Shown piece after piece: positions 46,118 to 51,717 of a stretch of 64,000 nt of DNA. Numbering within the stretch: position 1 is the stretch's first letter; each line of letters starts with the position of its first letter. The stretch lies in IMG/VR virus record IMGVR_UViG_3300037455_001096; one strand, written 5' to 3'. The stretch comes from a virus. Taxonomy: Duplodnaviria; Heunggongvirae; Uroviricota; Caudoviricetes. The notes beneath the pieces were generated by a model. It was not told the DNA's origin. It was given only the letters and a program-made list of their open reading frames with translations, and searched no databases. Position numbers and translations under genes: made by a program.

Positions 46118-46438
46118 TTAGTCGTTATAAACCTCGTAATTATCCGATACGACCGCTTTGCCGTTTTTGTTTGTTACAGTAACAAGAACGGTTTCGAATC
46201 CCAAATCAATTAAATCATCGCCTTCGTCACCATTCATCGCGCCGAAATAAAAACGGTTATCTTTTTGCGGCAGTTTTTTCACATCCTCAAAATTCATATT
46301 GTTTACTGTGTACTTTACAACATCGTAATCCCTTTTGTTTTTGTATGAATCTGTTTTCATATCGTCAAGGTGTGTTTTTGTAATCGGGGATATGTTGAGT
46401 TTTTCTGCGATAAAATCGTCTATGCTTAATACATTCAT
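46118..46438 (-). CDS. leader-family protein (106 aa)
   Basis: MNVLSIDDFIAEKLNISPITKTHL leader. Confidence 0.55.
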   Translation of the reverse strand: MNVLSIDDFIAEKLNISPITKTHLDDMKTDSYKNKRDYDVVKYTVNNMNFEDVKKLPQKDNRFYFGAMNGDEGDDLIDLGFETVLVTVTNKNGKAVVSDNYEVYND

Positions 46439-46460
46439 ATAGTATTTTTTATTGTAATAT

Positions 46461-47525
46461 TTATAAATCGCTTTTCGCTGCGACCGCTATTGATTTTGGC
46501 AGAGTTCCGCGAAGCGTGCCGCCCTTCAATTCCAACCCCCCGCAGTACAAGGACATAAGCGGAAAGCAGTCTTTCACGAATCGTAAAACTTTCTTTATGA
46601 TGTCCTGCGAGTTCTTGTACGACACTTTCCTCCACGGTTTCCCGCCGCACTCTTTCAGCAGGTCTTCCGCGCTTCTCATAGCCATATACTTCAGTCTCGG
46701 ATTGTACTCGTTTTTGCCGCTTTTGTCGAATGGCGACAGATACATAAGAGGGGTCTGCGTGCAGTCTATCTTGCCTTCCTCCAAATTGAATCTGAAAAAG
46801 TCAGAGCCTTCCGCACGCAGGGAACTGCCCTTTAAGCCGATGCGAAGATACGGCGTGATTCTCATATTCTGCCATCTGCGTGTGTTGATTTCGATTACAA
46901 CGGGGTATTCGTTTTCCAATTCCGCATACAGTCCGTCAGCGACTTCTTTTGCATAGCGCATTTTCCACGTGTTGTTTGCATCGTAAAGATTGTCAAGTTC
47001 AGCCGTTATTCTGTCGTTAAAAACACCGTATTTGTCATCACAAAGGAGTTCGCGCATTCCCAAAAGACCGTGTTCTTTCACTCTTTCGTAATACACACTT
47101 TTATATACCGCTGGCAAATCCCATCCCTTGAACATTATTTTATGATTGTCGTCAAGGATTATTGACGAATCCTCCATAGACTGCGCGGTGTACATAGAAT
47201 CGTGTCTTATCTTGTATTCAACGTTCCAATTTATCCGCTTGTAAATTCCGATGTGTCCTTCTATTCTTACGATTACGTTGCCATTCTCGTATTTTGCAAC
47301 CACATTGTAGTTGTTGTCAAGTATATTGTTTTGTATCTTCTCGTATGCGTCCCAAATGAAATCGGCATATTCGCGGGAGTCTGACGGGGCTTCGCTTTTT
47401 TTAAACCAAGCGTTTTCCTCTTGCTGCTCCGCTTGTATCTTTGACATACGTTCAGCCGACATAGGTTTTATGTCAAGCCTTTCGTTCACCTTTGAAAAAT
47501 CATCAATTTTTAATATCTTCGTCAT
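46461..47525 (-). CDS. leader-family protein with a non-LRR C-terminal domain (354 aa)
   Basis: MTKILKIDDFSKVNERLDIKPMSAERM leader. Confidence 0.6.
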   Translation of the reverse strand: MTKILKIDDFSKVNERLDIKPMSAERMSKIQAEQQEENAWFKKSEAPSDSREYADFIWDAYEKIQNNILDNNYNVVAKYENGNVIVRIEGHIGIYKRINWNVEYKIRHDSMYTAQSMEDSSIILDDNHKIMFKGWDLPAVYKSVYYERVKEHGLLGMRELLCDDKYGVFNDRITAELDNLYDANNTWKMRYAKEVADGLYAELENEYPVVIEINTRRWQNMRITPYLRIGLKGSSLRAEGSDFFRFNLEEGKIDCTQTPLMYLSPFDKSGKNEYNPRLKYMAMRSAEDLLKECGGKPWRKVSYKNSQDIIKKVLRFVKDCFPLMSLYCGGLELKGGTLRGTLPKSIAVAAKSDL

Positions 47526-47536
47526 TGCTTTGTTGT

Positions 47537-50622: not shown

Positions 50623-50782
50623 TCTTTGCTACCAAGCGATTTCGCAACCGTTGTATCTGTATTTATCCATACCCCTGCGAAGTCGCGTATGCGCTATCTT
50701 TTTCATTTTTTTCTTGAACTTCCTCCACAATTTAGACCTGCTGTTTGTGAAGTCGCTCGGATATTCTTTCAAACTGTACATA

Positions 50783-51244
50783 CTATTTGTGTTTTTTTAT
50801 GTATGCGCTGTAATGCATCACACTGTATATTCGTATTATGTTTCCGCTGTCGTTTATTCCGAAAAGAACGTGTTTTCTTAACAGATTCGAGACAGTTTTT
50901 TCATTGAAATACAATTTCGCATAGTCTTTGAGTTTGGCGGAGAAAATTTCAAATTCCGAAGTACATTCTGTTTTCATATCATCCAATACCTTTTTCACTT
51001 GGTCGAATGAATGGTATTTGCCTATGAGTTGGTTTTTATATTCCTCGTGGTTGTCATACTGCGGCAATGGATTCTCGCTTATGAGAACGTCAGTCGAATA
51101 CACATCGTTCTTATCGCCGCATTTTCCTTTATACAAATAGAAATTTGGGATGCCGTCAGCCTCCTTTTGCAGCCTATCACTTGAAAGAGGCTGTATGTTA
51201 AGTTTTTCGGAAACAAATTGCTCCGATGTCATTATCTTTGTCAT
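50783..51244 (-). CDS. leader-family protein (153 aa)
   Basis: MTKIMTSEQFVSEKLNIQPLSSDRLQKEADGIPNFYLYKG. The body resembles module 1 of the 799-aa gene. Confidence 0.6.
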   Translation of the reverse strand: MTKIMTSEQFVSEKLNIQPLSSDRLQKEADGIPNFYLYKGKCGDKNDVYSTDVLISENPLPQYDNHEEYKNQLIGKYHSFDQVKKVLDDMKTECTSEFEIFSAKLKDYAKLYFNEKTVSNLLRKHVLFGINDSGNIIRIYSVMHYSAYIKKHK

Positions 51245-51717
51245 AGTTCACCGTTAATGTATGCTTCGTAAAGTTCTTTGCTGTATATTCGGAATATTTG
51301 GTCTTGTTTGTTTATGCAGAAAAGGACGTGGTTGTTATGAAAATATGACGGTATGCTTTTGGCTTTGTAGTATTCAAACGCATAGTCTTTCAGATTAACG
51401 GAGAATATGGCGGTTTGCTTAAATGTGAATCCGCCGTTATTAATAATTGAATTATCCAATATATCTTTAACTTTGTCAAAGGAATGGTATAACCCGACAA
51501 ACTTTTTCTTGAACACGTGGTTGTTGTCATATTGCGGCAGCGGTTTGTCGCTTATCACAACATCGTATTCGAAAACGCCGTTGTCCTCACCGCATCGCCC
51601 TTTATACAAATAGAAGTTTGGGATGCTGTCAGCCTCCTTTTGCAGCCTATCACTTGAAAGCGGCTGTATATTCAGTTTCTCGGAAATGTATTCCTTTGAC
51701 TTCAGTATCTTTGTCAT
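51241..51717 (-). CDS. leader-family protein (158 aa); close paralog of 50783..51244
   Basis: MTKILKSKEYISEKLNIQPLSSDRLQKEADSIPNFYLYKG. The ATGA overlap with the upstream gene suggests coupling. Confidence 0.6.
   Translation of the reverse strand: MTKILKSKEYISEKLNIQPLSSDRLQKEADSIPNFYLYKGRCGEDNGVFEYDVVISDKPLPQYDNNHVFKKKFVGLYHSFDKVKDILDNSIINNGGFTFKQTAIFSVNLKDYAFEYYKAKSIPSYFHNNHVLFCINKQDQIFRIYSKELYEAYINGEL

Follow-up and report, generated by a model that had tools for sequence, protein, structure and literature searches.

IPI, IPII and IPIII, which are internal proteins of bacteriophage T4, carry a capsid-targeting sequence (CTS) that was reportedly described by Mullaney and Black in 1996. The CTS is covered in reviews (PMC9026906, PMC3012670). 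In IPII and IPIII the N-terminus reads MKTYQEFIAE/A, the slash marking the cut (PMC8442874; checked here in the T4 sequence); residues 4 and 7 serve targeting, and residues 8 and 10 (I and E) serve processing, which is blocked by the E10D substitution (PMC9026906). Cleavage after Glu is common to the proteases of T4, phiKZ, 201phi2-1 and SPN3US (PMC5694885), and T4-type internal-protein loci are hyperplastic (PMC3012670). The element compared with this system here is a conserved N-terminal leader, or tag, of genes in a 64,000-nucleotide (nt) stretch of DNA from a virus of the Caudoviricetes (IMG/VR record IMGVR_UViG_3300037455_001096). The whole stretch is called the window below, and the section in question lies at positions 46,118 to 51,717. 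A preliminary description of this section had likened the leader to the T4 signal. The analysis presented here indicates that the leader is very probably a modular tag that acts at the peptide level and is read by one common partner.

Fourteen window genes begin M-(T)-K-I-L-x-x-x-[ED]-[YF]-[IV]-x-E-K-L-[ND]-I-[KQ]-P-[IVLM]-[ST]-K-x-R-L, and three further copies are internal to open reading frames (ORFs) of the window. A degenerate DNA pattern for EKLxIxP matched the window 17 times, where 0.17 matches were expected, and this number was reached in none of 100 shuffles. A hidden Markov model (HMM) built only from the leaders of other contigs recovered every window copy with E values of 1e-9 to 1e-17. 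The leader had first been described as about 20 amino acids (aa) long; the conserved unit comprises approximately 27 residues and consists of two parts. Part A was defined as residues 1-12 (M-K-I-L-x-x-x-E-[YF]-[IV]-x-E) and part B as K-L-x-I-x-P-[VI]-[ST]-K-x-R-L. All seven leader-bearing genes that the preliminary description had listed as lacking leucine-rich repeats (LRRs) do start with the leader (marked in Table 1). They gave no Pfam or PHROG match at all (none at threshold for the body of 46118-46438), and their bodies fell into separate BLAST clusters. The bodies found behind the leader in the window are of LRR type, of the FYLYKG family, or one of five further, mutually unrelated kinds. 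Copies that had not been noticed before are two in 48223-50622, one in 15663-16469 and two degenerate ones in 52576-54774.

A search of 1.84 billion representative proteins with the leader profile yielded 177 clusters at E<=0.001, with nearly all matches starting at residue 1 or 2. Re-alignment gave 190 leader copies from about 150 protein clusters, 144 of them N-terminal (start at residue 1-6) and 46 internal. The Glu of EKL, which would be the P1 residue of a cut, was present in 190 of the 190 copies and never replaced by Asp; the Pro was equally invariant, Leu was found in 189, Ile in 188 and Lys in 183 copies, and the P3 position was occupied by I, V or L in most of them. In 135 of 153 proteins the Glu stands at index 10-12, and all 14 N-terminal copies of the window conform to this. 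For the invariant E, K, L, I and P, codon positions 1 and 2 were 97% identical between copies, position 3 only 50%. Mean nucleotide identity of the leader DNA was 58% over 48 nt, exact runs shared between copies had a median length of 8 nt, and the DNA upstream of the start codons of leader genes was unconserved. The codon-position pattern, the short shared runs and the unconserved upstream DNA show that selection acts on the peptide and not on DNA or RNA.

Thirty of the 153 proteins are multi-module, with one leader copy per ~145-195 residues. Their internal copies retain the hydrophobic-x-Glu triplet and the whole of K-L-x-I-x-P-[VI]-[ST]-K-x-R-L and have lost the M-K-I-L... part. Because of this loss the leader must be regarded as bipartite: part A is required at true N-termini only, whereas each module boundary requires [IVL]-x-E together with part B. 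In the window this organization is seen in the 799-aa ORF 48223-50622. Its module 1 consists of a leader and an 'FYVYKG' domain homologous to 50783-51244 and 51241-51717 (aligned with the family of 51241-51717), whereas modules 2 and 3 each consist of an internal leader and an LRR domain that aligns with other paralogs. The first internal copy follows directly on the end of homology to the two stand-alone proteins. Since a 96% identical 799-aa copy occurs in independent assemblies, the fusion is real. Degenerate copies were found in 52576-54774, which has a leader-like N-terminus (MQMEHLQTYENFIEKLAEPKT) and a second degenerate copy, NDYIDEKL (53722-53745), exactly between its two domains, one a CapA-like PGA_cap domain and the other a MATCAP/DUF1704-like metallopeptidase; the internal copy scored weakly (3.1 bits, E 0.063).

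The gene 62823-63584 had been reported to carry the leader in front of a FISUMP domain. The domain was confirmed (PF09603, E 2.8e-29, 103.2 bits versus a cut-off of 33.9, profile positions 1-187 of 187), whereas of the leader only the first half is present, and the match is weak: 5.1 bits and E 0.015 over model positions 2-12 with the full HMM, E 0.008 with a part-A HMM. A small ORF (62607-62795, plus strand) located 27 nt before this gene has a part-A-like end, ...TVMNFDEFVKANK, which may be the remnant of a disrupted leader.

AlphaFold models of one LRR and one non-LRR member gave predicted local distance difference test (pLDDT) values of 64-70 for the leader and of ~90-98 for most of the body; in the model of the LRR gene 36985-37590 the values were 67-70 for residues 1-30 and 95-98 for the LRR body. 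Both models have a common layout, with a helix at approximately residues 6-14, an extended L-N-I-x-P segment and the beginning of a second helix. Judged by its lower pLDDT and this shared layout, the leader seems to be a peptide added to the body, not an element of any one fold.

At least seven other huge-phage contigs carry the tag. Six were found in IMG/VR by DNA-pattern scans (413, 192, 144, 106, 85 and 43 kb, the largest being 3300031994_000001) and one, of 39 kb, by look-up in ENA; copy counts per contig are lower bounds, the highest being 53 or more for those parts of the 192-kb contig that were retrieved. When 140 modules were compared by BLAST, at least 26 mutually unrelated body families were distinguished, which bears out the earlier claim of heterologous bodies behind a constant N-terminus. 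Pfam domains were assigned to a minority of the tagged proteins (DUF285 in 13, FISUMP in 10 and LRR in a few). For the non-LRR bodies, nothing usable came from searches against PDB sequences, Pfam and PHROG (for 46461-47525, no PDB match at E<=1), and a homolog search with the FYLYKG family returned four proteins only. Where homologs of the bodies were found, namely of 46461-47525 in other contigs, of 47537-48226 on an ENA contig (L004, ERZ25021399 NODE_2367) and of 42294-42731 on the 413-kb IMG/VR contig, they were leader-bearing as well. A MafB19-like deaminase body suggested by a weak Pfam report was not confirmed by motif search and was set aside. The bodies of the LRR paralogs are genuine YopM/IpaH/InlJ-type LRRs with tandem repeats of ~22 residues: phmmer searches against PDB matched InlJ (7.5e-16), YopM (1.9e-14), SspH2 (2e-12) and also IpaH, and in Foldseek the probabilities for IpaH LRRs reached 1.0, although no E value was below 0.11. 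LRR homologs of Lak phages, of the 735-kb phage LR756501 and of Vibrio phage VB_VaC_SRILMA lack this tag, hence the tag is independent of the LRR domain and specific to a clade. A tblastn search with the 29-residue consensus tag found no match in 50,697 GenBank phage records, nor did a near-identity search of the region against GenBank phages, which left neither a cultured phage nor a published proteome to draw on. Literature searches did not find the tag described in the searchable literature. On L004, at 7011-10772, a gene for an FtsH-like AAA plus Peptidase_M41 protein is located directly upstream of two leader genes, the second of which is broken after 46 residues and goes on in an overlapping 221-aa ORF; the interruption may be a frameshift.

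The resemblance to T4 concerns part A. When 1,276 ATG-initiated ORF starts of T4 (160 kb) were scored with the profile of the first 12 residues, IPIII ranked first, IPII second and IPI ninth; the prior chance of an internal protein ranking first was ~3 in 1,276. The product of T4 gene 61.1 (gp61.1; record 18966-19130, minus strand), which begins MKTFKEFIKE, is as CTS-like as IPI and ranked 7 of 1,276. Some of the window copies have the sequences MKILNSQEFINE/K and MNVLSIDDFIAE/K, to be compared with MKTYQEFIAE/A in T4. Cutting after Glu is the rule for the T4, phiKZ, 201phi2-1 and SPN3US proteases, and the [IV]-x-E of the tag, with a Glu that is never substituted, fits it. The proposed likeness to capsid-targeting sequences is thus partly supported, by the ranking of part A (at a low absolute score) and by the invariant Glu, but does not extend to part B, the internal copies or the type of body.

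The motif TATAAATA, the T4 late-promoter consensus, occurs at 18 sites in the window as compared to 1.3 expected, nearly always in intergenic positions and mostly 17-30 nt before a start codon of the correct strand. It was found ahead of both leader arrays (Table 1), of three isolated leader genes and of tail-fibre-like genes. In related contigs it precedes the ATG of 25 of 110 leader genes, mostly by 14-21 nt. This distribution suggests T4-type late transcription in the tag-bearing clade. The arrays also differ between close strains: the ENA contigs L090-L092 (141-161 kb, ~96% identical in shared genes) are devoid of 51731-52567, 51241-51717, 50783-51244 and 46118-46438, contain IS605 OrfB/TnpB genes next to each of the two arrays, and their flotillin gene is truncated (187 aa versus 511 aa in the window). 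The absence of four leader genes from close strains and the IS605 TnpB genes beside the arrays show that the leader arrays are hyperplastic.

Loci of related appearance were noticed in two other phages. In Vibrio phage VB_VaC_SRILMA, at 7941-11024, the closest LRR homolog from a cultured phage (49% identical repeats) starts MCTFEEWFGE and is adjoined by four small genes with the starts MKFKQFLAE, MKFKEYLNE, MNFKEFINISE and MNFKEYIQLGE; TATAAATA lies upstream of two genes of this cluster, which makes a candidate locus for internal proteins in a phage that has been cultured. No homology to T4 head genes was found in the 62 kb of SRILMA that were examined. In the uncultured phage LR756501 (735 kb) an LRR array is flanked by genes with CTS-like N-termini of FINE/FLNE type, starting MKNFTRFINEN, ...SYRSFINEG and ...LSEFINEN, and the tandem LRR paralogs at 18926-22552 share another N-terminal module, MIKxF...[VIL]G[LMI]PSGE[VI]..., which may be a second, independent tag system. 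Judged by their sequences, both loci look like CTS-type loci containing LRR genes.

In the mechanism we favour, the tag would be a two-part address that sends a large and fast-changing set of binding domains to one place, most likely the assembling prohead. Part A would bind the prohead core and then be removed by the prohead protease, cutting after the invariant Glu in the gp21-like [IVL]-x-E. Internal copies of [IVL]-x-E plus part B would act as additional cleavage sites, at which multi-module precursors would be split into their modules inside the head. Part B would stay as the common new N-terminus of each mature module, where its role could be extended protease recognition, head retention or that of an ejection handle. 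Besides the ranking of part A and the invariant Glu, this reading is favoured by the locked position of the tag, the peptide-level selection, the heterologous bodies, the lower prediction confidence of the tag, the T4-type context (the gp32 homolog of the window and the placement of TATAAATA), the hyperplastic arrays and the CTS-like gene starts in SRILMA and LR756501. That the tag is such a T4-type prohead-targeting and cleavage propeptide is put forward tentatively, our doubts slightly outweighing our confidence.

Several points weigh against this mechanism. With T4 gp20-gp24 as tblastn queries, neither the window nor related loci amounting to 660 kb gave a prohead protease, capsid or scaffold gene; these sequences represent partial genomes, and distant proteases could be missed in them. 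A tblastn search with T4 gp21 against all phages returned 2,574 records, among which the relevant relatives could not be singled out. In absolute terms the T4 CTS match is weak (9.8 bits, E 0.067), and it is short. Part B, the more strongly conserved half, is without a counterpart in the T4 CTS and would survive the proposed cut, and the 46 internal copies do not fit a simple T4 CTS. Unlike the basic internal proteins of T4, the bodies have isoelectric points of 4.3-7.9, and they are dominated by FISUMP, DUF285 and LRR domains, which are usually annotated as surface or extracellular. The copy number on the 192-kb contig is, to our knowledge, beyond any known cargo set, and the proposed scissile bond lies within a helix predicted by AlphaFold. 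Packaging, cleavage and delivery of the tagged proteins are what we infer for a clade known from sequence alone. The tag might represent a new cargo-loading system, in which the T4-like half loads proteins and polyproteins into the prohead and E/KLxIxP[VI][ST]KxRL serves both as cut site between modules and as common handle, or else a universal virion-display plug. We regard this as possible though rather unlikely; under either form part B would be a recognition motif without a described counterpart.

The surface-type bodies could also be explained by a docking peptide, by which swappable adhesin modules (LRR, DUF285, FISUMP) are displayed outside the virion on a common capsid or tail site without any cleavage. 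The arrays share TATAAATA with tail-fibre-like collagen genes, one array being divergent from such a block, the invariant E-K-L-x-I-x-P core resembles a motif read by a single partner, and a prediction confidence lower for the tag than for the body is what an exposed linear motif would show. However, internal copies every 150-195 residues sit badly with a single anchor, neither the CTS-like character of part A nor the strictly kept Glu is explained, and many of the bodies are small (80-130 residues) with unassigned fold. Moreover, a linear peptide of 27 residues is not known to us as a virion anchor. We consider external docking unlikely.

A constant short N-terminal module joined to variable interaction domains of at least 26 families, with an invariant core and acidic to neutral bodies, is what would be expected of an intracellular hub-binding motif, which would recruit the variable domains to one phage or host machine, for instance a protease, by the logic of F-box-plus-LRR adaptors, the proteins never being packaged. 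The FtsH-like AAA protease gene next to two leader genes agrees with such a role, but this arrangement was seen only once. The position of part A is locked to the initiator Met, which a hub motif would not need, and the CTS likeness together with the late-promoter-like motifs points to morphogenesis. Recruitment to a hub is in our estimate distinctly improbable, somewhat more so than docking.

The predicted order of helix, short extended segment and helix could suggest a helix-turn-helix (HTH) or HeH/SAP-like nucleic-acid-binding motif tethering the bodies to DNA, and the leader of 15663-16469 gave a weak LacI-HTH match (E 0.017, 15.4 bits versus a cut-off of 27). At pLDDT 64-70, however, the packing is not confident, the tag has a net charge between about -2 and +4 and is not consistently basic, no Pfam family was matched at threshold, and a stable three-helix bundle would need a longer conserved stretch. 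A DNA tether is very improbable. Even less credit can be given to a functionless leader, be it a duplication remnant, a block of DNA homology that serves the exchange of cassettes, or an RNA or translation-initiation element: tandem arrays do gain and lose members and many bodies are paralogs, but the third-position divergence, the short exact runs and the unconserved upstream DNA described above speak against it, the tag is kept on dissimilar bodies across contigs of different samples, and internal copies are invariant far from start codons. Readings as a recombination block, a DNA-level signal or an RNA element were ruled out by the codon analysis. An export signal (Sec, Tat, lipoprotein or other N-terminal secretion signal), which the annotation of many body families as secreted or surface proteins in bacteria might suggest, can practically be dismissed, as was argued in the preliminary description from the lack of hydrophobicity: the leader has no hydrophobic core (grand average of hydropathy -1.0 to +0.3, mostly negative; maximal 15-residue Kyte-Doolittle mean 0.79 in the first 35 residues), nothing like the hydrophobic h-region of about 10-15 residues that follows the basic n-region of a classical secretion signal, no twin-arginine motif and no lipobox Cys, and it also occurs internally.

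Table 1. Leader genes, leader copies and TATAAATA sites of the window. HMM scores refer to the model built from leaders of other contigs; (a) marks the non-LRR genes listed in the preliminary description.
Feature	Gene	Strand	Leader copy	Sequence or score	TATAAATA site
Leader gene, 106 aa, body fold unassigned (a)	46118-46438	-	46358-46438	MNVLSIDDFIAEKLNISPITKTHLDDM; 38.4 bits, E 5.7e-13	46458-46465(-), 20 nt upstream
Leader gene, 354 aa (a)	46461-47525	-	47436-47525	MTKILKIDDFSKVNERLDIKPMSAERMSKI; 33.7 bits, E 1.7e-11	
Leader gene, 229 aa (a)	47537-48226	-	48152-48226	MKILNIKQFNEKLNIQPMTKTGLSN; 48.0 bits, E 6e-16	
Three-module ORF, 799 aa	48223-50622	-	50539-50610, 50134-50172, 49027-49062	HMM domains 34.7, 18.7, 14.4 bits	
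Leader gene, 153 aa, FYLYKG family (a)	50783-51244	-	51164-51244	39.5 bits, E 2.6e-13	
Leader gene, 158 aa, FYLYKG family (a)	51241-51717	-	51637-51717		
LRR leader gene, 278 aa	51731-52567	-	52490-52567	25.7 bits	
PGA_cap + MATCAP fusion, 732 aa, first gene of array	52576-54774	-		PF09587 E 5e-53, PF08014 E 1.7e-10	54836-54843(-), upstream
Second array, six leader genes	34591-39385	-		26.9-53.2 bits	39819-39826(-), ahead of gene heading the array
Second array, non-LRR member (a)	34591-35385	-	35305-35385		
Second array, LRR member	35395-36147	-	36082-36147		
Second array, LRR member	36149-36982	-	36902-36982		
Second array, LRR member	36985-37590	-	37525-37590		
Second array, LRR member	37590-38492	-	38412-38492		
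Second array, LRR member	38495-39385	-	39323-39385		
Isolated leader gene, 145 aa (a)	42294-42731	+	42297-42374	28.0 bits	42268-42275(+), 19 nt upstream
LRR gene with split leader	15663-16469	-	16296-16358 (full copy, residues 38-58)	part-A-like N-terminus MANIMKIDEFAAKCVNE; 41.5 bits	16492-16499(-)
FISUMP-domain gene, first half of leader only	62823-63584	+	62829-62867	MSKILKLDEFTKINE; KILKLDEFTKINE	
Further TATAAATA sites					7289-7296(-), 17931-17938(+), 54836-54847(both strands, including the site listed for 52576-54774), 63675-63682(+)

The window, a piece of a large phage genome, encodes a single-strand DNA-binding protein of T4 gp32 type, an exonuclease and several very large ORFs; the gp32 homolog was the sole match when T4 gp20-24, gp55, gp33, gp45 and gp32 were sought in the window and in all loci examined. 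In GenBank a 1,245-aa window protein has its best relatives in uncultured huge phages (LR756500, 37% identity), in jumbo phages of Flavobacterium, Tenacibaculum and Chryseobacterium, in Sphingomonas phage PAU and in Lak phages. The 'TONG22' metagenome sample and related ones, taken to be gut metagenomes, yielded near-identical contigs with lengths of 141-161 kb; samples with near-identical contigs are ERZ28633814, ERZ28634109, ERZ27298227 and SRR12681659. The hosts of the tag-bearing huge-phage clade are probably gut or rumen Bacteroidota. Extension past the window by exact-protein look-up reached ~10 kb leftward, where no structural or leader genes were present, and nothing rightward. A PurZ-like adenylosuccinate synthetase is encoded at 32097-33233 (plus strand; phrog_1211, E 1.4e-40), and SRILMA has one as well; in some phages PurZ marks DNA that contains 2-aminoadenine (Z). 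A gene at 44495-46030 (plus strand), located between both leader arrays, specifies an SPFH/Band 7 and flotillin protein with an N-terminal transmembrane segment. Two collagen-like proteins with G-X-Y repeats and many tail-fibre PHROG matches are encoded at 4216-7272 (minus strand) and 56400-57956 (plus strand), with TATAAATA upstream, directly for the former and via the preceding gene 54874-56394 for the latter.

A signal for packaging and processing, if that is what the tag is, would mean that the sets of injected proteins are much larger and more variable in huge phages than in T4; the 'cargo' carried by uncultivated phages would become readable straight from sequence, and a short portable peptide with a defined cleavage site would be at hand for loading foreign proteins into large capsids. 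Should it be a docking plug instead, it would constitute a new way for phages to swap adhesin modules. In both cases it provides a concrete, testable handle on dozens of ORFan families.

Like the T4 CTS, the tag is a short N-terminal peptide carried by unrelated proteins of one phage, with an M-K start and an aromatic-aliphatic-x-Glu end; the Glu is required in T4 and invariant in the tag, and the loci are variable between related phages in both. The extreme N-terminal position and the length of the T4 signal, 10-19 residues, are matched by part A, as is the (L/I)-x-E end, a prohead-protease motif. In contrast to T4, the tag comprises 27 residues with a more conserved second half, KLxIxP[VI][ST]KxRL, which is missing there, it occurs also inside multi-module proteins, and it is found in dozens of genes per genome as against three or four. 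The tagged bodies are acidic to neutral binding domains, whereas the T4 proteins are small and basic, and for the tag packaging and cleavage are putative.

The inner-body and ejection proteins of phiKZ, 201phi2-1 and SPN3US are similar in that these giant phages have many head-internal proteins, some of them paralogs with conserved N-termini, which are cut after Glu in x-x-E, often at several sites per protein (PMC5694885). Their propeptides differ, being mostly 80-130 residues long with an A/S/G-x-E motif and without a described invariant prime-side motif. In phage P1 an N-terminal segment of ~30 residues of DarB suffices to direct a heterologous protein into the capsid (PMC9024508); this is a single protein without a family-wide tag or a described cleavage motif, and it is set beside the tag by description, not by sequence. 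F-box plus LRR adaptors and polymorphic toxins likewise combine a constant short N-terminal module with variable domains of rapid turnover, but they are unrelated in sequence and fold, and F-boxes and toxin trafficking domains are much longer than the tag. What is known, then, is the CTS logic of T4; what is new is a 27-residue unit in two parts, of which the prime-side half is invariant, the employment of this unit at boundaries between modules within proteins, its scale of dozens of genes per genome and at least 26 domain families, and its occurrence in uncultivated huge phages.

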